DNA from: Bacillota bacterium
GTDB lineage: Bacteria; Bacillota; UBA994; UBA5500
Direction of reading: 5' to 3'
Assembly (NCBI GenBank): GCA_050949085.1
Contig: JBMNFB010000001.1
Span: 712,567-776,566 of the forward strand
DNA length: 64,000 nucleotides
Part shown: positions 54,200 through 64,000 of the stretch, piece after piece
How the letters are laid out: every line of letters starts with the position of its first letter
How positions within the stretch are numbered: the first letter of the stretch is position 1
Notes under the pieces: generated by a model
Told to the model about the DNA's origin: nothing
Database searches by the model: none
Seen by the model: the letters and a program-made list of their open reading frames with translations, nothing else
Program-made: the position numbers and the translations under genes

Positions 54200-54823
54200 C
54201 TAAATGGTCCACTCGGCATGGACAATGCCTACCAGGTACCAGGCGTCACCCTCCTGCTCAAAGACCAGCCGCAGGCTGCGCCAGTCAATTCCCCCATATT
54301 GCGGATCAATCTCCGGGAAGTGAAACTCGATGAAGCCGCCGTTGGGGTATGCTTCCTCGATGTTGTTGATGGTGTTACTCCAGCCGATGCTGTGATTCCG
54401 GCCAACCATCGGTGCCTGGGCAAAGTCCACGTCGTAGACGAAGCGCCCGTAGTACTCGCCAAATGTAAGCTCGATGGGGTCGCCACTACCGTCATACTCG
54501 CCCCAGACGTATACGGTCGTGTCGCTGTCCAGCTCCGCAACCTGGTCGGTCGTGAAAACCCGGTCCTTCTCCAGATCGATGTAGGGATAAGCGGTAAATC
54601 GCAGCCCCTTCTGCGGATGCACTATGGACGCGAGACTCTCCCAGTCCCTGGCCTTGATAAGCTCGATGGCGCGCAGTGCGCTGAGCAGAGGCTCCTGCTG
54701 GGCTAGCAGCCCAAGGTCATTCCCAGCGTCCGGATCCTGGTTGACAAGCGGCATGCCCGAACAGCCTGCCAGCAGCCCTACCGTCAAGACGAGCAGTACA
54801 AGTAGACTAATCCGTCTGGTCAA
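54200..54823 (-). CDS. Lipoprotein of unknown function (paralog A)
   Basis: TTG start after AGGAGG; lipobox LLAGCSG; C-terminal IDWRSLRLVFEQEGDAWYLVGIVHAEWTI. Confidence 0.6.
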   Translation of the reverse strand: MTRRISLLVLLVLTVGLLAGCSGMPLVNQDPDAGNDLGLLAQQEPLLSALRAIELIKARDWESLASIVHPQKGLRFTAYPYIDLEKDRVFTTDQVAELDSDTTVYVWGEYDGSGDPIELTFGEYYGRFVYDVDFAQAPMVGRNHSIGWSNTINNIEEAYPNGGFIEFHFPEIDPQYGGIDWRSLRLVFEQEGDAWYLVGIVHAEWTI

Positions 54824-55056
54824 TGCTGACCCTCCTTCTGGCGTTTCTACGATGACATCTCTTCCGGGACTCCCGAGGCGCGCTACGTCGACAGCTGCCC
54901 GTGGTCGCCCCCAGGGTCCCTTGTCTGTTATGGACGCCCAAGCCGGCTCCTTTGTTGCCGCGCGGTCCCTGGCATTAATGCCCTGCCGCGCATCACGGTT
55001 AGCTTTCTCTGCTCTAGACTCGCCTTTTTCGACGGCGGCTTCTACCACACTCCCCG

Positions 55057-55686
55057 CTAGATCGTCCACTCGCCGTGGATGACTCCTACCAGATACCAGG
55101 TGTCGCCCTGCTGCTCAAAGACGAGCTTCAGGCTGCGCCAGTCGATTCCATCGTGCATTTCAGTTCCTGGGAAGTAGAACTCGACAAACCGCCCGTTCGG
55201 ATAGGCCTCCTGAACATTATCGATGGCATTGCCGGTGCCGATGATGCGATCGCGACCAATCAGCGGCGCATTAGCGAAGTCTGCATCGTAGATGAAGCGC
55301 TCATAGTATTCGCCGAAGGTTAGTTGGATCGGGTCGCCGCTACCATCATAGTGACCCCAGTTATGCTTGGTCGAATCGGTGCCGAAACCGGCAACCTGTT
55401 CGGCAGTGAAAACCAGGTCCTTCTCAAGCTCAATGTAGGGATAGGCAGTGAAACGCACCCCTGCCTCAGGATGCACCATGGCCGCCAGCCCCTCCCAGTC
55501 CTTGTTCTGGATCAGTTCGATGGCCTGCAGTGCACTGAACAGCGGCCCTTGCGATTTGGCCAGCTCCCGCCAGCTTGCCACCTCATTCTCCAGTTCCTCG
55601 ATGGCACCTCGGTCGACACAGCCGACCAGGAGACCAAACGTCAACAGTATGACCACACAAAGGCTGATAACTCTCTTCAATCTCAA
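55057..55686 (-). CDS. Lipoprotein of unknown function (paralog B)
   Basis: Lipobox LLVGCV; C-terminal IDWRSLKLVFEQQGDTWYLVGVIHGEWTI. Confidence 0.6.
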   Translation of the reverse strand: MRLKRVISLCVVILLTFGLLVGCVDRGAIEELENEVASWRELAKSQGPLFSALQAIELIQNKDWEGLAAMVHPEAGVRFTAYPYIELEKDLVFTAEQVAGFGTDSTKHNWGHYDGSGDPIQLTFGEYYERFIYDADFANAPLIGRDRIIGTGNAIDNVQEAYPNGRFVEFYFPGTEMHDGIDWRSLKLVFEQQGDTWYLVGVIHGEWTI

Positions 55687-55901: not shown

Positions 55902-56648
55902 TCACCTTCCCCGAGTGCGCAGCAGAAACTGACGGGTGCGCTCCTGCTGCGGGTTGTCAAGAATCTGCTCGGGTGTGCCTTCTTCGGCGATCACGCCCTG
56001 ATCCATGAAGGCCACGCGGTCGGCGACCTCGCGAGCAAAATCCATCTCGTGGGTGACGATGAGCATCGTCATGCCGCTATCCGCCAGCATCTCCATCACC
56101 TTCAGCACCTCGCCCACCATCTCCGGGTCGAGAGCGGACGTGGGTTCGTCAAAGAGCATCACATCTGGCTCCATGGACAGCGCCCGAGCGATGGCCACGC
56201 GCTGCTTCTGTCCGCCAGAGAGCTGTCTCGGCCGCGCATGGATGAACTGCTCCATCCCCACCAGCCGCAGGTATTTCAGCGCCACCTGTTCGGCTTCTGC
56301 GCGGCTGCGGCGCAGCACCTTCATCTGACCGACAACGCAGTTGCCCAGGACATCATGGTTGTTGAACAGATTGAACTGTTGAAAGACCATGCCCAGCCGG
56401 GCGCGGGTGGCGTAGATCTCTCCCGGCCTGTCGAGGATATTCTGCCCCCGGTAGATGATCCTGCCGCCGCTCGGCTTCTCCAGCAGGTTGATGCAGCGCA
56501 GCAGGGTCGACTTCCCCGAGCCAGAGGAGCCGATGATGCAGACGACCTCGCCAGCGCTTACCGAGAAGTTGATGTCCTTCAGGACCTCATGTGTACCAAA
56601 GGACTTGCTCAGGTGCTGAATCTCAATCACGTTTTCCATGTCTTTCAC
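55902..56648 (-). CDS. Polar amino-acid ABC transporter ATP-binding protein
   Basis: GSSGSGKST Walker [10 protein letters not shown] signature, GlnQ/ArtP-like length. Confidence 0.9.
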
Positions 56649-56660
56649 CTGCCTCCCCTG

Positions 56661-57437
56661 CTAGTAGCTGGACGAGCTGCGCTGCTTGCGCAGGATATCT
56701 TCCGGCGTCTCCACCTGCATCTGGTTCGCATAGAGAATATAGTGCTCTGGGCCGTCAAGCCTTCTCTCCAGATAGCGCAAGATCCGCGTGACGGTGAATG
56801 TCATCACCAGGTAGATCACACTGACGACGAGGAATGTCTCGAAGTAGTGAAAGTTGCTACCGGCGACAGATTTCCCCTGAAAGAACAGCTCGGTAACCGA
56901 AATAACGTTGAGCACCGAGGTATCTTTGATGTTGATGACAAACTCGTTGCCCGTGGCCGGCAGAATGTTGCGGATCACCTGCGGCAGAATGACGTAGAAC
57001 ATGGTCTGCCAGTGGTTCATGCCGATGGCCTGGGCCGCCTCGAACTGCCCCTTATCGATGGAGACGATGCCGCCGCGCACGATCTCAGCCATATAGGCGC
57101 CAGTGTTGATAGAGACGATGAACAGGGCAGCCGTCAGCCGATCCATGTGCAACCCCAGGGCGATGGCCGAACCGTAGTAGATGACCATGGCCTGAACAAT
57201 CATCGGCGTCCCCCGGAATACTTCAATATACACGGCGAGGACAGCATTCATCATCCAGAGGCAGGCGCGCTTCGTGCGGCCTCCTTCTCTGGGAATCGTG
57301 CGAGCGACACCCACCAGCAAACCGATAACAACGCCGACAACGGTGCCGACGGTAGCAAGCAGGAGAGTCGTTCGGGCTCCCCGCAGGAACATCGGCCAGT
57401 ATTCCGTCGTGATCCTGACGATCCATTCTAAGCTCAT
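56661..57437 (-). CDS. Polar amino-acid ABC transporter permease (HisM/GlnP type)
   Basis: BPD_transp_1-like with the EAA-loop region. Confidence 0.85.
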   Translation of the reverse strand: MSLEWIVRITTEYWPMFLRGARTTLLLATVGTVVGVVIGLLVGVARTIPREGGRTKRACLWMMNAVLAVYIEVFRGTPMIVQAMVIYYGSAIALGLHMDRLTAALFIVSINTGAYMAEIVRGGIVSIDKGQFEAAQAIGMNHWQTMFYVILPQVIRNILPATGNEFVINIKDTSVLNVISVTELFFQGKSVAGSNFHYFETFLVVSVIYLVMTFTVTRILRYLERRLDGPEHYILYANQMQVETPEDILRKQRSSSSY

Positions 57438-57501: not shown

Positions 57502-58314
57502 CTAGCCGCCGATGGGCTGGTTCTTGATCGCCTCGTCCATGATCTGCAGGCGTTCATCCTGCGAGATGCCAGCCAGGATCTCGTTGATCTTGGTGGTCAG
57601 CCCGCTTCCCTTCTTCAAGCCCACCGCAACCACGGTGTCTTCCGGCGAGGTGGTGAACCCATCTGTCAGCTCGATCATCTTCAGATTGGGGTTAGCAGCA
57701 GAGGCGCTGACTCCCTCCGGGCGTTCGGATACATAAGCGTCAATCATGCCAGCTTCCAGGGCTACGCGCATCGCCGTAAAATCGTCCATGGCCGGCTGCT
57801 TCGCCACTCCAGGGATCTGATCGATGACGGTGTAGTGGAAGGTACCCATCTGCGCCGTCACCTTCGCACCCGCGAAGTCGGCCAGCGTGCTGGCGGCTTC
57901 GTACTTGCTGCCGCGCCTGACAACCATGACCAGGTCGGACTCATAGTAGCTATCCGAGAAGTCGATCCGCTCAGCCCGCTCGGCCGTGGGCGACATACCA
58001 GCGATGATCACATCAATCTTGCCCGAGGTGAGCGCCATCTCCAGACCGTTCCACTCGGTCTTGACGATGGCCAACTCCCTCCCTAAGCCCTCGGCGATAC
58101 GCTTGGCGATCTCCACATCGTAACCGCCAGCGAACTCGGCAGTGCCCTCAATCGGGACAGCGCCGTTAGAATCATCCATCTGCGTCCAGTTGAAAGGGGC
58201 GTAGCCCGCTTCCATGCCGGCGCGCAACACGGCGTCGCCCTGCCCGCCGCACCCGGTTACCAGTGTCATCACAGCCAAGGCAAGCGCCAAGGCCAACATC
58301 CATCTATTTCTCAT
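57502..58314 (-). CDS. Amino-acid-binding lipoprotein (SBP family 3)
   Basis: Signal peptide with LVTGCGG lipobox; SBP_bac_3-like. Confidence 0.85.
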   Translation of the reverse strand: MRNRWMLALALALAVMTLVTGCGGQGDAVLRAGMEAGYAPFNWTQMDDSNGAVPIEGTAEFAGGYDVEIAKRIAEGLGRELAIVKTEWNGLEMALTSGKIDVIIAGMSPTAERAERIDFSDSYYESDLVMVVRRGSKYEAASTLADFAGAKVTAQMGTFHYTVIDQIPGVAKQPAMDDFTAMRVALEAGMIDAYVSERPEGVSASAANPNLKMIELTDGFTTSPEDTVVAVGLKKGSGLTTKINEILAGISQDERLQIMDEAIKNQPIGG

Positions 58315-58365: not shown

Positions 58366-58400
58366 GGCAAACAAAAAGACCTAAGGCGAAGCTTAGGTCA
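58366..58400 (-). terminator. Rho-independent terminator downstream of the McrBC-like pair
   Basis: Plus strand ACAAAAA then GACCTAAG-GCGAAG-CTTAGGTC; hairpin then U-run on the minus strand. Confidence 0.5.
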
Positions 58401-58735
58401 TGGAATACCTACACCTCCCCACTTTCCCTGAATGAAGTAGCACAACTCAGCAAACCGGGATTGCTTACTGAGACAGTTCTGCAGTTCATCACTGCAGCCC
58501 CAACCAGCTACACTTGAGGATGCAACTGGTTTCGGCGGCATTTCGCCCTCTCTGGCCTCATTGCTTCTCAGGCTCCACCAGAGATTCCTAAACGCCGCGC
58601 CTCTACCTCACCGGTCAAAGTGAGGCGTTGCTAGTATTAAGTTATCGCTAGTCTACAAGATAGGTGCCTGTCCTGTCAACCAAACTATATATATTTGCAG
58701 GATGATTGTCTCTGCAGGAGTTGGGCTTCTGATTA

Positions 58736-61264
58736 TCACCCAGCCGATGATCGTTCGTTCACAGCCGCCATCACCCGACGCAAGACGTACATCGGCCTAA
58801 GCTGCAGGTCTCTTACATCAGCGAGCTTCTCGTCACCCAGCAGGATCTCCCCGCCGATCACTTTGACGTTCATGCCAGCGATCGCAAAGCCCTCGACAGC
58901 TGTCTCCTCAGTTAGTTGCCTCGCCGCCAGCAGGACTGCCACTGTATCGTCCAGCCGCTGCAGCTCCTTCCAGAGCCGCACCTCGGTATCAGACTTCAGG
59001 CTAAGCTCCGGCAGGTGTCGGGCCCGTTTCAGCAGATATGGCGTCGTATAGATCCGACGGCGGACGCCGTAGCCGGCCGGGAATACCGGACCGACCTCTC
59101 GCCACTTATCCACGAGGAATAGGACATAGTCCTCGCCTGTGCTCCTGCGACGACTGGGAATGGCGATTTCGGATCGCTTCACTAGTCTAGCTTCCACAAC
59201 CTTGCCCCAGTAGCGAACCCCGTTGAAACGCTCCCTATTAGCTCCCTGCGGTTCATAGAGCGCGATATGCTCGATATGGAGGAAACCCTTGGGCAGCTCC
59301 CGCGCTGGGATGTGGTAGGTACGCATCTCAAGGTGGTAGTTAAGATGATCTGCGCCGTTGACCACTCCCACCAACACGCTCCGCCGGGCAAACCGCTCTT
59401 CATAGTACTCCTGCGTTCCCTCAACCTCTCCAGCCTGTTCTTGAGCAGTCTCAGGGGAAGCCAGAATCAGATCGTCCAGCATCTGCTCCACCAGCTGGGT
59501 GTTACCAGGTAAGAATGGGAGACCGCCGATGCCCACCTGTCCGATACTTTCATAGAAACGATGCGGTTCCCCGCCGTCCAGTCCGGCGTACTCGGCTTCA
59601 TCTGCGTATGGAAAGAGAATCACCGCGCCAAATGTGCCTCGCCTGTACCCACCGTCCTTCTGTTGATAGACCAACGCATCGCGGTAACGGTGCATAGTGT
59701 TGATATCTTCCTCCAGCGGGCCGGGGCGCAGGTAACTCCTGGCGTACCAAGTGCCTTCCATGGCAGGGTCGATGCGGTACTTGGCATCGAACAAATAGCG
59801 ATACTCCATATCTGAACCAGCCTTGCGTAAAGTTAAGACGTTGTCGGGTTTCTGGGATACCGTTGGCGATGTCGGCTGACGGGCATTATAGCTGAGAATA
59901 TACTTCTCGCCATTCTGATCGTTGACGAATTCCAGATCCGCAGTGTGTCGCGTGTCCAACATGACGGCCAATCCCTCGCCCCTGACCATGATCGCGCTCT
60001 GCCGCCTCAGACGATACTTCTGGCGCAGGATAGAGCCCAGAGCCAGGAAGCACCAATACTCATAGAGCTGAGCGACGTCCTTCACGCTCAGCTCAAAAAT
60101 CTCGCCCTGCAGGGACAGACCCTTGGTCAGCATCAGATAGTACCGATAGACCTCCCGGTAGCCGGAGGCCATCTGCAGCACCAGCGATTGACCGTCAAGC
60201 CTGGTCAATTCCCCACACTCGCGCAGAAACTCGGCGGTGAGCATGGCCTGCGTCCCGCGCTGCATGCGCTCAATATGTCCCACGACCTCCGGATCAGGCT
60301 GGCGGTTAGCTTCGAGGTAGCGCCGGCGTAGATCGCCCAACCTGCCCAGGATCCGTCTCAGCATCCATTTCACAACTCGGTTTTCGTAGGTATCGTAAGA
60401 AACGCGTTTCCGTGCATCCAGCATCCGCGCCGGCAGATAGACTGAGCCACCTATCCGCAACCCATGTCTGCCCTTCTGCAACTCCTGCGGGTGCCGTTCC
60501 AACCAGCGCCGCGACAGGCCATCCGTTCTGCGCACTCGTTCCGGCCGCACTAGCACATGGTCTGGAACGATCACCTGCTGGGGTGACTGTTTCACTCGCC
60601 GGAAAGCTGCCTGGAGACGGTCAAACAGAAAAGATACCACACTGTAGAACTCCGCCAGGCTGGTCTGGCGCTGACTGCCCAGCTTGGCCTGCAAATACGT
60701 GCGGCGGAGGAAGTCGAAGGCCAGGTTGTAGACTTCTTTGTTGACGTCGCTGAGCAGCTGCCAGTAGTCCTCTTTGTACCTCAGCTTGACTGGAAAGACC
60801 TCCAGCGTCACCGAGAGCGCTGCCCGACCGTCGACCCCTATCTCGAATGTGCTGAAACCAACATCGTTACGGAAGTTCAAGATCCCAGTCAGAGTGTGCC
60901 GCCGCCCAACGGGCTTAACGGCGTTACGCAGGTACTGATCCCGATGGAAGAAAGTAACCTCCTTGTCGCCCTCTCGCTCAATCACGATCTCATACGGAGT
61001 TTGTTCATAGAAGCAGGCGAAGACAGGCTGCAACGGAGCGTACGCGGCCATCTGCCCAGGTGCTGCTGGATCAAAGCAGCAGGCACAGATATAGTTACCC
61101 CTGATGCTCAGTGTGGCCACGTAATGTTCGGCCAGATTCTTGGGGATCACGCCTAGCCCCTGGGCTACTGGATGCATCGGTCGCCCCTTGATCGTCAGAG
61201 TGAAATCCTCGGTCTCGATATAGAGCAGCTTTACTTCCTCAGATCCAATAGGAGGTAAAGCCAT
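58736..61264 (-). CDS. McrC-like restriction subunit: DUF2357-like N-region plus PD-(D/E)xK nuclease (DUF524/PDDEXK_7-like)
   Basis: SYDTYENRVVKW block; LYEYWCFLAL; nuclease core ...RYLFDAKYR (D...DAK). Start overlaps the McrB-like stop. Confidence 0.7.
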   Translation of the reverse strand: MALPPIGSEEVKLLYIETEDFTLTIKGRPMHPVAQGLGVIPKNLAEHYVATLSIRGNYICACCFDPAAPGQMAAYAPLQPVFACFYEQTPYEIVIEREGDKEVTFFHRDQYLRNAVKPVGRRHTLTGILNFRNDVGFSTFEIGVDGRAALSVTLEVFPVKLRYKEDYWQLLSDVNKEVYNLAFDFLRRTYLQAKLGSQRQTSLAEFYSVVSFLFDRLQAAFRRVKQSPQQVIVPDHVLVRPERVRRTDGLSRRWLERHPQELQKGRHGLRIGGSVYLPARMLDARKRVSYDTYENRVVKWMLRRILGRLGDLRRRYLEANRQPDPEVVGHIERMQRGTQAMLTAEFLRECGELTRLDGQSLVLQMASGYREVYRYYLMLTKGLSLQGEIFELSVKDVAQLYEYWCFLALGSILRQKYRLRRQSAIMVRGEGLAVMLDTRHTADLEFVNDQNGEKYILSYNARQPTSPTVSQKPDNVLTLRKAGSDMEYRYLFDAKYRIDPAMEGTWYARSYLRPGPLEEDINTMHRYRDALVYQQKDGGYRRGTFGAVILFPYADEAEYAGLDGGEPHRFYESIGQVGIGGLPFLPGNTQLVEQMLDDLILASPETAQEQAGEVEGTQEYYEERFARRSVLVGVVNGADHLNYHLEMRTYHIPARELPKGFLHIEHIALYEPQGANRERFNGVRYWGKVVEARLVKRSEIAIPSRRRSTGEDYVLFLVDKWREVGPVFPAGYGVRRRIYTTPYLLKRARHLPELSLKSDTEVRLWKELQRLDDTVAVLLAARQLTEETAVEGFAIAGMNVKVIGGEILLGDEKLADVRDLQLRPMYVLRRVMAAVNERSSAG

Positions 61265-63413
61265 CTTCCTCAAACCTCCGTAACATGATCGCTAGCTTGG
61301 CAGCACTGCGCGGATAGGGAAGGAAGTCGTGCGCCACCTCAAACTCCTCGAGCCGCGCCAGCAAGTCATCATTGGCTGTGGTTAGATCGACGCCGCCGCA
61401 AAACTTGAGCAGATCGATCAGCACCCGCCTCACTCTCTGCGAGCTCCCCTGAATGCGCGGCAGGATCTTCTGCAGCAGCTGATAATCGAACGCCACTGCC
61501 TCGTCCAACAGCTCCAGCTGGCGGTTGTGCACCATGTAGATCACTATCTCGTCGCGCACACGATACCCCACATGCAGATTTGCCTGCTGGAGGATGTCGT
61601 TGATGACAACCAGCTGGTCCACGATACCGTCCGCGAAATCGGGCTCAACCGCCAGGGCATCAGCCAGATGCACATAGAGGCCGCGAAACTGGCTGTTAGC
61701 TACTCTGATCGGCTCAACTGCGTTGCCAGCCTCCCGCTGATAGCCTTTCAGATCGACTTCTGAGAACTCAATAGTATTCGCTCGATCTAGCACCTTCTTA
61801 CTGAATGGGTGCGTTGTCTCATCCATGTTGACTGTGCCGACCAAGTAGAGGTTGTCCGGCCAGCCTAGCCCTGAGTAACGCCGACGATCGGCTTCCGTCC
61901 GGAAATGGACCGGTTTGAGCAACGGGTTGGCGACGATACGCCCGTCCTCGAGCTTCCGCGTCTCCATGACACTGAGCAGGTCAGACAAGTAATGTTCAAC
62001 CCGAGCCAGATTCATCTCGTCCAGAACGACCAGGTACGGCACGTCCGGATTCTGCGCACTCTCCTCGATAATGCCGGTTAACTCACCTGGGCGGAAGTTC
62101 CCCTCCAAGTCTACATAGCCCAGCAGGTCCGATCCGTCGTTCCAGTCTGGCCGTACGGCGATAGGGCGCCATTCGGCGGATATCGCCCTGGCAAATAGTC
62201 TCGGCAGCAGGCTTTTTCCCGTCCCCGAGATACCAGCCAGAATGACGAAAGGCTTGGTGCGCAGGCAGAGGTAGAAGTTGCAGAGGTCGGGGTAGGTGTA
62301 CTGAAAGCCCTGTGCCAAGACGGACCCATGAACATGCTCAAGCAGTTCGCTTATGGATCGGGGTGGCTCCGGTGACTCGTCCATCGGCACTTCGCGCACC
62401 TGCCCTTCGATCGCCAGATTACCTCTCAGTTGCGCGTAGAGCTTCAGCATGTGCTCAAGGTCATCGAGTAGTTCACCGTCGTCCGGTATGTCCCCTCTGT
62501 CGTATTTGATGTAGCAGATAATCCCGGCCTCGTATTGCTGCGCCAGGCGCGCTTGCCCAATTGCTGCCCCTTCCTCCGCTAGTCCGGTTATGTCGATCTG
62601 CTTGCGGAGATCAGCGGCCTTGCCTCGTAACAGGGCTAAGCCAGATCTGCCTGGGTGCTGCTGCATAGTCTCGGTTACGCCTAACATCAGACATAAGTAT
62701 ACTGAGTCCATATCGGAGCCAAAAAGGTAGACTACGTAGACTCCCGATTGAATCGATTCTGTAATATTCGTATCCAATACTGCAACCCAGGGTACAGCTG
62801 CCCAATTTCCTTGGCCGGCAGAACCGATGATCTTATATGTGTCAGGAGCGACTAGCCCGCTGTCTGCGATGGCGACGGGAAGGTCGCGGGTCAGCACCTT
62901 GACAATAGGGACAGAACCACTGAAACGCTGACTGCGTGCCTCGGGATAGCTTTCCAGAACCTCGTTCAGTAGCGAGTTCAAGGATGACCGAACGACCCGC
63001 TCCTCGTAATAGTCATCAAGACGTTGCTCGACCAATCGGGCCAGCTCCTCCCTATCTGCAAGAGTCATTTGCGCCCAGAGCTCAGGAACAAACCCAATCT
63101 GCTCACCTGTTCGCCTGAGAAGACCAGCGCGGCTGTAGGCAGCGAATGGATTATCCAGAATAAGTGACCTGACCGCGGCTATGCTCATATCTGCAACTCG
63201 GTTAATGCTGGCGCGGGGCTGATCAACGGGAAGACCAGCTTTAAGGCGGTCTTCATAGAATGCCTTGAATGCCTGAACAACAGTCTCAAGTTCTACTAGA
63301 CCGTCTGCGTCTAGCCGGGGAAGCATTGCTTTCAGCAGGACCAACTTATATGAGAACTGAAGGCTGGAGTCTGTAACATATTCCCTAAGCTTTCTCAGCA
63401 ACGTATCAGGCAC
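61239..63413 (-). CDS. McrB-like AAA+ GTPase with DUF3578 (MrcB_N) domain and an extra about 135-aa N-terminal extension
   Basis: GSAGQGNWAAVPWVAVLD...GVYVVYLF DUF3578 block; Walker A GISGTGKS; Walker B LVVLDEMN; McrB-type GTVNMDET motif. GTG start after AAGGAGG. Confidence 0.8.
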   Translation of the reverse strand: MPDTLLRKLREYVTDSSLQFSYKLVLLKAMLPRLDADGLVELETVVQAFKAFYEDRLKAGLPVDQPRASINRVADMSIAAVRSLILDNPFAAYSRAGLLRRTGEQIGFVPELWAQMTLADREELARLVEQRLDDYYEERVVRSSLNSLLNEVLESYPEARSQRFSGSVPIVKVLTRDLPVAIADSGLVAPDTYKIIGSAGQGNWAAVPWVAVLDTNITESIQSGVYVVYLFGSDMDSVYLCLMLGVTETMQQHPGRSGLALLRGKAADLRKQIDITGLAEEGAAIGQARLAQQYEAGIICYIKYDRGDIPDDGELLDDLEHMLKLYAQLRGNLAIEGQVREVPMDESPEPPRSISELLEHVHGSVLAQGFQYTYPDLCNFYLCLRTKPFVILAGISGTGKSLLPRLFARAISAEWRPIAVRPDWNDGSDLLGYVDLEGNFRPGELTGIIEESAQNPDVPYLVVLDEMNLARVEHYLSDLLSVMETRKLEDGRIVANPLLKPVHFRTEADRRRYSGLGWPDNLYLVGTVNMDETTHPFSKKVLDRANTIEFSEVDLKGYQREAGNAVEPIRVANSQFRGLYVHLADALAVEPDFADGIVDQLVVINDILQQANLHVGYRVRDEIVIYMVHNRQLELLDEAVAFDYQLLQKILPRIQGSSQRVRRVLIDLLKFCGGVDLTTANDDLLARLEEFEVAHDFLPYPRSAAKLAIMLRRFEEDGFTSYWI

Positions 63414-63584
63414 ATATGCCGCCTCCTTCACTACACTTGACACAACTACACGTATGAGCCTCTTCAGGCGTACCCGTGGAACGGGCCCAAGCCATGACCA
63501 CCACAACTAAAACGAAGGCCCACCGGCGGGCAGGCCTACGTCCTTCTGTAGAGAGAGCCGTTGCCAGTCTAGTTGCCCCTACCA

Positions 63585-64000
63585 TTACGGCTCCGCGGCA
63601 ACTCCTTCGCTTTGGTGCCGTCCCAAAGCGCCCTTGACGACCGCCTCAGTGTCGGCTGTAACATAGGCCCTCTTTACGGGAAAGCGAAGCAGGGTCAAGC
63701 CAGCGTCGGAGTATGCCTGCTCAATAAAGCGATCCCTTCTGGCCCGGGCTACTCTGTTATGCGAGGAATCATCCAGCTCAATAACTACAAGTGGTTGGAT
63801 CTTCTCCTTATCACAGATCACAAAATCTACATGCTTGGACTGAATGCGGTTCCAGTGGCTCTGCCGCCCAGAGGTCCCTCTGGGCAGATAAAGAAGATCA
63901 CCCATGCGTACCTTGGCGAATATGTGCACATCTTCATCCTTTAAGACCAACGACAGTACCTCAAAGAATGAACGCTCAGCTGCTGTAAACAGGTAGTCCT
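63585..64000 (-). CDS. DUF2726 / Vsr-like endonuclease-fold protein (5'-partial, runs off the window)
   Basis: SKHVDFVICDK...PLVVIELDDSSH...RDRF...AGLTLLRF pattern. Reading frame stays open to position 64000. Confidence 0.6.
   Translation of the reverse strand, partial: DYLFTAAERSFFEVLSLVLKDEDVHIFAKVRMGDLLYLPRGTSGRQSHWNRIQSKHVDFVICDKEKIQPLVVIELDDSSHNRVARARRDRFIEQAYSDAGLTLLRFPVKRAYVTADTEAVVKGALGRHQSEGVAAEP

Follow-up and report, generated by a model that had tools for sequence, protein, structure and literature searches.

A two-gene McrBC-family locus of the NxD branch in a Bacillota bacterium, with a predicted winged-helix head on McrB and a predicted PUA-like domain in McrC

The DNA analysed here is a 64,000-nt window of contig JBMNFB010000001.1 from a Bacillota bacterium, and the stretch examined (58366-64000) carries three genes, all on the minus strand, two of which encode homologs of the McrB and McrC subunits of the McrBC restriction enzyme. 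A first-pass annotation made from the sequence alone described these two as overlapping minus-strand genes that form a Type IV (modification-dependent) restriction module beside a DUF2726 gene, and the open reading frames confirm the overlap: the start of mcrC overlaps the 3′ end of mcrB by 26 nt, giving the pair an operon structure. mcrB lies upstream of and overlaps mcrC here and in all of the related loci examined, two of them from the window lineage (L001 and L009), one from another lineage (L010) and one on a Paenibacillus chromosome (L012). The features of the pair are listed below.

61239-63413, minus strand: mcrB homolog, 724 amino acids (aa); winged helix, MrcB_N and NxD-type AAA+ NTPase, defined by the open reading frame with a GTG start and by Pfam and PDB matches
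62964-63413, minus strand: N-terminal winged-helix domain of the McrB homolog (residues 1-150); no Pfam model; candidate divergent sulfur-binding domain
63333-63353 and 63135-63155, minus strand: winged-helix motifs SYKLVLL and DNPFAAY, respectively
62427-62960, minus strand: MrcB_N (DUF3578/ADAM) domain, homolog of the 5-methylcytosine (5mC)-flipping domain of E. coli McrB (PF12102, E 5e-50)
61734-62264, minus strand: McrB-type AAA+ NTPase core (AAA_5, McrB equivalog region, motif cores)
62211-62234, minus strand: Walker A motif
62010-62030, minus strand: Walker B motif
61815-61838, minus strand: NxD(E) signature
58736-61264, minus strand: mcrC homolog, 842 aa, defined by the open reading frame, Pfam matches and an 842-aa database protein that is 99% identical
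60890-61264, minus strand: N-terminal domain of the McrC homolog, ~125 aa, without a Pfam match
60137-60889, minus strand: DUF2357, full-length match (PF09823, E 9e-67)
59600-60070, minus strand: PD-(D/E)xK nuclease domain (PF04411, PDDEXK_7, E 1e-43)
59780-59848, minus strand: catalytic PD...DAK, with P473, D474, D493 and K495
59021-59383, minus strand: PUA-like (EVE/YTH/ASCH-like) domain in the McrC C-terminal extension, a predicted fold
58739-59014, minus strand: small alpha/beta domain at the McrC C-terminus

We take mcrB to extend from 61239 to 63413 because its likely start codon, a GTG at 63413, has the Shine-Dalgarno sequence GAAGGAGG 8 nt upstream, database proteins that are 97-99% identical to the McrB homolog are 724 aa long, and a TTG at 63506, considered as an alternative start and rejected, falls within the T-tail of the upstream gene's terminator (63537-63516). 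Translation of mcrC starts at the ATG at 61264, yielding the 842-aa product.

Both proteins belong to the McrBC family by hidden Markov model (HMM) matches and by motifs. The four Pfam models put forward as checks in the first-pass annotation (PF12102, PF07728, PF09823 and PF04411) all give positive results, and the DUF3578 domain it had assigned to the McrB homolog is present. The AAA_5 match of the McrB homolog has an E value of 4e-7 in Pfam, and the AAA+ region together with part of MrcB_N aligns to the solved E. coli McrB (6ut6, E 4e-8). The motifs GISGTGKS, LVVLDE and GTVNMDET are located where they had been reported, and when each protein is aligned with 120 homologs (121 sequences per alignment) the cores GxSGTGK[ST], LDEMN, and NMDE within GTVNMDET are invariant. 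The last of these had been described as the McrB-specific motif; it is present as stated but is an NxD variant, with N-M-D-E in all 121 sequences instead of the canonical NxxD signature of McrB GTPases. An NCBIfam search returned a McrB match only, below threshold, and in the suggested PADLOC comparison the A subunit of the candidate system PDC-M26 was matched strongly and its B subunit weakly; a literature search for the name PDC-M26 returned unrelated papers only.

The NxD motif, usually followed by Glu or Asp, defines a major branch of McrBC systems according to Bell et al. (eLife 2024, PMC11090510). Their paper covers the CoCoNuT clade of this branch, which contains coiled coils, and defers the rest, and it states that no NxD-branch enzyme has been characterised. 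The pair described here resembles the NxD branch of PMC11090510 in having a strictly conserved NxD followed by Glu and an McrC with extra fused domains, and in its presence in Bacillota. The combination of winged-helix and MrcB_N heads with a PUA-like McrC tail and no adjacent methyltransferase is an architecture that the sections of PMC11090510 consulted do not describe for the branch.

The MrcB_N head aligns to E. coli McrB-N (3ssc/6ut6) through residues 36-89, weakly (E 0.015-0.11 for that stretch), and in this weak alignment the equivalents of E. coli McrB S38, N43, W49, Y64 and L68 are kept. In E. coli McrB, Y64 and L68 contact the methyl group of the flipped 5mC (PMC3424535), and since these pocket residues, including the methyl-contacting pair, are retained, the MrcB_N head is likely, judging by its sequence, a base-flipping reader of the 5mC, 5-hydroxymethylcytosine (5hmC) or N4-methylcytosine type. 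The counterpart of the intercalating Y41 is a Gln, a replacement reported in other McrB-N homologs (PMC3424535).

The McrC homolog contains the DUF2357-like region and the PD-(D/E)xK core (FDAKY) ascribed to it, as reflected in the two Pfam matches listed above and in the PD...FDAKY residues, which are invariant in 121 sequences. Its top 120 homologs are 760-860 aa long except for one truncated 557-aa entry, and the C-terminal extension is present in 120 of 120 and the N-terminal one in 119 of 120. E. coli McrC is ~350 aa, so that the McrC homolog here is more than twice as long. McrC makes contact with McrB, and activates it, through its N-terminal DUF2357 domain (PMC11090510). Because the catalytic motifs are invariant across the homolog alignments, both enzymes look active.

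A predicted model of McrC residues 557-842 is confident from approximately residue 627 onward, and in this model the C-terminus contains a PUA-like (EVE/YTH) fold, a beta-barrel. Structural matches of the McrC tail include the N-terminal heads of Staphylothermus marinus McrB (score 7.6) and Thermococcus gammatolerans McrB (6.6). These archaeal proteins have the PUA/YTH-like head at the N-terminus of McrB, whereas the corresponding domain here is at the C-terminus of McrC; in the EVE-HNH enzyme VcaM4I the reader is carried on an HNH nuclease. Bell et al. (PMC11090510) note that McrC can be fused to EVE-superfamily domains.

An additional N-terminal domain of ~135 aa had been noted in front of MrcB_N; it is indeed present, spans ~150 aa, and is found before MrcB_N in at least 105 of the top 120 McrB homologs. 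Most of these are 725-750 aa long; Paenibacillus and Cohnella contribute many of them, with no annotation beyond "MrcB family/DUF3578 domain-containing protein". The architecture that the first-pass annotation called non-canonical, with an unusually long McrC, does differ from that of E. coli McrBC but is standard in a large family common in Paenibacillaceae, and the locus represents a common McrBC variant that has been catalogued by computation but never studied by experiment. What is new here is the predicted winged-helix nature of the unannotated N-terminal domain, its distribution and partner domains as described below, and the predicted PUA-like fold in the McrC C-terminus.

Pfam searches of the four unassigned stretches at E values up to 10 returned nothing meaningful, and searches of the winged-helix domain and 36 family members (E up to 1-10) gave no match, including to PF26340, the family of ScoMcrA, SprMcrA, EcoWI and Hga. 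Structure prediction, which had been proposed for the McrB N-terminal region, gives a confident AlphaFold model for residues 1-150 (predicted local distance difference test score of 92.9 with a 36-sequence alignment) in which a winged helix bears an insertion and is joined by a long helix at the C-terminal end. Among 1.84 billion representative proteins searched by profile, 844 protein clusters contain the domain. Pfam scans of ten sampled carriers show partner domains in eight and no match in two, and the partners are McrB NTPases (some also carrying MrcB_N or EVE), one Mrr-type nuclease, nucleases combined with an SF2-helicase, one methyltransferase, and one RNA-polymerase alpha C-terminal domain, a distribution that suits a DNA-reading module.

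The position of the domain varies among these carriers. It is C-terminal in proteins with an Mrr-type nuclease, a restriction endonuclease plus SF2-helicase, or a methyltransferase, and N-terminal in a 1212-aa protein ending in the RNA-polymerase alpha C-terminal domain (P0345, P0316, P0328, P0369, P0274). Longer McrB relatives (~860-1060 aa) have a further module N-terminal to the winged helix, without a Pfam match in P0003, an EVE domain in P0270 and DUF7669 in P0063, and these varied front modules reflect head-swapping within the family.

Structural comparison of residues 1-150 returned, ranked after other entries, three solved sulfur-binding domains (SBDs) with phosphorothioate DNA, those of ScoMcrA (5zmo, 8.1), Hga (8h0l, 7.7) and SprMcrA (7ccd, 7.1), and these give the longest structural alignments (110-112 residues). 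As in ScoMcrA, SprMcrA, EcoWI and Hga, the domain here would be a winged-helix-derived reader located N-terminally in a restriction enzyme, and, as in these phosphorothioate-dependent enzymes, [H/Y]-K-x-V-L-L would lie at helix 2, with x-P-[FY]-x-A further along the domain. ScoMcrA likewise pairs a sulfur reader with a 5mC reader (SRA). The pair here differs from these enzymes in lacking a PF26340 match, in having 17-19 residues inserted between the two motifs, and in its effector, which is a separate McrC nuclease with a motor rather than a fused HNH or PD-(D/E)xK domain. No paper linking an SBD to an McrB-type enzyme was found in a literature search that was not exhaustive.

True SBD sequences for comparison were sought by scanning genomes with a back-translated HKPVLL...PFW pattern, which gave seven hits. 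Two are real SBD-HNH genes (L006 and L008), one of which matches SBD-Hga at 3e-10; the remaining five (including L005 3812-3961) were discarded as chance matches in unrelated or non-coding frames. A homolog search gave four proteins, and relatives of the retrieved SBD-HNH genes carry PF26340. The SBD profile is shallow, with six sequences, and its alignment by hhalign to the N-domain family has a P value of 1.8e-4 (probability 48%), or 6.8e-5 (probability 63%) with a 178-sequence alignment, over 42-43 columns. Against the real score of 31-33, profiles with shuffled columns (300 trials) reach 11 ± 2 (maximum 19) and the reversed profile 11, and an SBD HMM also touches some of the N-domain family, without a change of register, at 8-15 bits.

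In the confident part of the hhalign alignment S-Y22-K23-L-V-L-L lies on P-H-K-P-V-L-L, and the near-invariant F49 lies on an invariant Phe. Relaxed settings and a broad alignment place N88-P89-F-A-A92 on Y-P-F-W-[A/H]; an alternative register exists, in that one hhalign setting matched P89 to the SBD's second Pro (SEPFW) rather than to the cavity Pro, and the broader alignment and predicted strand positions appear to favour the cavity-Pro register. The sulfur cavity is formed by H116, R117, Y164, P165 and A168 in ScoMcrA, by Y31, Q32, Y78, P79 and A82 in SprMcrA, and by H25, K26, L75, P76 and H79 in Hga. Y22 and K23, and under the relaxed settings P89 and A92, align to the cavity positions Y31/H116, K26/R117, P79/P165 and A82/A168, respectively. 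Among 178 family members Y22 is conserved in 169, K23 in 164 and P89 in 177, and no residue is more frequent than A92 at its site. The winged-helix family varies at position 88, as SBDs do at the counterpart of this position.

The pair is probably a Type IV enzyme of the McrBC family that attacks modified DNA. Membership of the McrBC family, as claimed in the first-pass annotation, is supported by the HMM matches and motifs described above; the Type IV label itself we infer from the conserved 5mC-pocket residues and from the genomic context, with no methyltransferase called within 8-10 kb of the pair in four loci (L001 and L009 of the window lineage, L010 and L012). E. coli K-12 McrBC (EcoKMcrBC) is similar in its mcrB-mcrC order, its MrcB_N/DUF3578 domain with the pocket residues, its McrB-type AAA+ motor, and its DUF2357 and PD-(D/E)xK domains with DAK. 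It differs in having the signature NTAD where the pair here has NMDE of the NxD branch, and it lacks both the ~150-aa winged-helix head on McrB and the N-terminal, PUA-like and small C-terminal domains that the 842-aa McrC adds. By analogy with E. coli McrBC, McrB would form a ring-shaped AAA+ motor that binds DNA through its heads, and McrC would dock via DUF2357, stimulate nucleotide hydrolysis and DNA translocation, and cut the DNA with its PD-(D/E)xK site. Target reading may be spread over as many as three modules, the winged helix, MrcB_N and the PUA-like domain of McrC, such that the complex would attack incoming DNA bearing foreign base marks and possibly backbone marks. A further proposal, that the winged helix is a divergent SBD and that the complex senses phosphorothioate, we regard as possible and rather doubtful.

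A number of observations weigh against this interpretation or against one of its readers. For the winged helix, a Foldseek search of the PDB gave no significant match (E 0.1 or worse) and only generic winged helices, the top matches being those of MarR, ORC and cullin, with no SBD in the top 50. Nor was an SBD found when the N-domain alignment profile was searched against PDB sequences, the PF26340 HMM does not match the domain, and the hhalign probability is only 48-63% with a low-confidence mapping of the proline half. The PUA-like domain lacks sequence-level support, with no Pfam match in 22 family members. For the enzyme as a whole, no NxD-branch member has been characterised biochemically (PMC11090510), and PcaIAB of Pectobacterium has the same layout of AAA+ protein and long DUF2357 protein yet cuts unmethylated DNA.

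A rival account of the first head is that the winged helix serves generically for DNA binding or anchoring, or reads some other mark, and that the system is an ordinary 5mC/5hmC McrBC with its specificity provided by MrcB_N. This account has somewhat better than an even chance of being correct; it touches only the first head and is compatible with a Type IV McrBC enzyme. It is supported by the absence of a PF26340 match, the Foldseek results, and the 17-19 residue insertion between the cavity motifs, as well as by the near-invariant Y53, R56, D/E64 and Y135, which have no stated role in SBDs. It does not readily explain the excess of the hhalign score over all 300 shuffles, or an alignment register that sets the most conserved residues of the family on the cavity positions, where Tyr at the first position is native in the validated SprMcrA domain and Lys at the second is the commonest state in SBDs.

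The main functional rival to a Type IV enzyme is a PcaIAB-like one, i.e. the nuclease half of a classical restriction-modification system that cuts unmodified DNA and is restrained by an unlinked methyltransferase. PcaIAB and LlaJI also consist of an AAA+ GTPase subunit and a long DUF2357 nuclease with N- and C-terminal extensions, and NxD-branch systems are often associated with methyltransferases (PMC11090510). However, PcaIAB and LlaJI have a cognate methyltransferase and cut unmethylated DNA, whereas no methyltransferase was called within 8-10 kb of the pair in L010, in L012 or in the window lineage, and the McrB homolog here has an McrB-N-like head. PcaIA is without similarity to the McrB DNA-binding domain, whereas MrcB_N here keeps the methyl-contacting Tyr and Leu, and we consider a restriction-modification role improbable.

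RNA targeting or abortive infection of the CoCoNuT kind, with the YTH/EVE-like McrC domain reading modified RNA, is very improbable: the NxD motif is the only feature common to CoCoNuTs and the pair here, neither protein has a HEPN or cold-shock Pfam match, the assigned domains include no long coiled-coil fusion apart from one ~40-residue linker helix (no coiled-coil predictor having been run), the PD-(D/E)xK site is intact, and the McrB heads are of DNA-reader types.

McrBC is the textbook Type IV enzyme, and this locus is a clean, compact and catalytically intact representative of the NxD branch with three candidate readers, the candidate sulfur-reader head and the PUA-like tail adding modest extra interest. 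Were the winged helix to sense sulfur, this would be the first motor-driven (McrBC-type) restriction system to sense backbone phosphorothioate, in combination with base reading of the 5mC type and a third reader, PUA-like and carried by the nuclease subunit. Phosphorothioate readers would then extend beyond HNH and PD-(D/E)xK fusions to motor-driven systems and to some restriction-type proteins with the same domain, the presence of the reader family in 844 clusters would point to additional phosphorothioate-dependent nucleases and helicases, and new phosphorothioate-mapping reagents could follow. Without sulfur sensing, the locus would still be a useful but ordinary case of modular head-swapping in Type IV systems.

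The neighbourhoods of the pair differ between lineages, from which it appears to be an accessory module, moved from one context to another, and not a housekeeping one. In L010 (6564-7754) the homologous pair adjoins an AIPR abortive-infection gene, and on the Paenibacillus chromosome (L012, 207-7519) it adjoins genes for a Gabija-like OLD-TOPRIM ATPase and a UvrD helicase, together with two transposases. This synteny check thus reveals varied and partly defence-island-like surroundings instead of a universally conserved housekeeping setting, in agreement with the accessory or defence locus first proposed, and that annotation is supported in substance. A search of other contigs for an empty site, using the exact flanking binding protein, failed; it returned three contigs, of which one has the full pair, one has a truncated upstream gene located in the same place, and one ends too close to judge.

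The features flanking the pair are as follows.

63585-64000, minus strand: DUF2726 gene, PD-(D/E)xK superfamily, with its 5′ end cut by the window (PF10881, E 4e-26)
58679-58650, minus strand: promoter-like site preceding the lysine aptamer
58430-58613, minus strand: lysine riboswitch aptamer (RF00168, 88 bits)
58399-58378, minus strand: terminator hairpin behind the lysine aptamer
57502-58314, 56661-57437 and 55902-56648, minus strand: binding protein, permease and ATPase genes, respectively, of an amino-acid ABC-transporter operon under the lysine riboswitch

The pair had been credited with a terminator of its own, and this is incorrect. The hairpin at 58399-58378 directly follows the lysine aptamer and is downstream of the promoter-like site. 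It thus belongs, as expression platform, to the amino-acid ABC-transporter operon that comes next and is not a terminator of the McrBC genes; the riboswitch region (58378-58679) takes up the 3′ end of the stretch examined. No terminator was found between the McrC stop codon and the promoter-like site of the riboswitch.

The DUF2726 neighbour is correctly identified, but its adjacency to the pair is confined to contigs of this lineage (with proteins 97-99% identical), and the gene runs off the end of the window. The full gene encodes 183 aa, as seen in L001 (7130-7681), a contig with 99.1% identity across 10 kb. The gene is closed by its own terminator, the one at 63537-63516, and is absent beside the homologous pairs in the two other lineages examined (L010 and L012). 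On these grounds we rejected it as a component of the system, and it is probably not part of the McrBC system.

Two other regions of the window carry further features. Two adjacent paralogous genes at 54200-55686 on the minus strand encode products of 209 aa and up to 289 aa with lipoprotein-like N-termini and very similar C-terminal halves, and their L001 counterparts match no Pfam family. Near the opposite end of the window, at 317-417 on the minus strand, there is a glycine riboswitch aptamer (RF00504, 64 bits).

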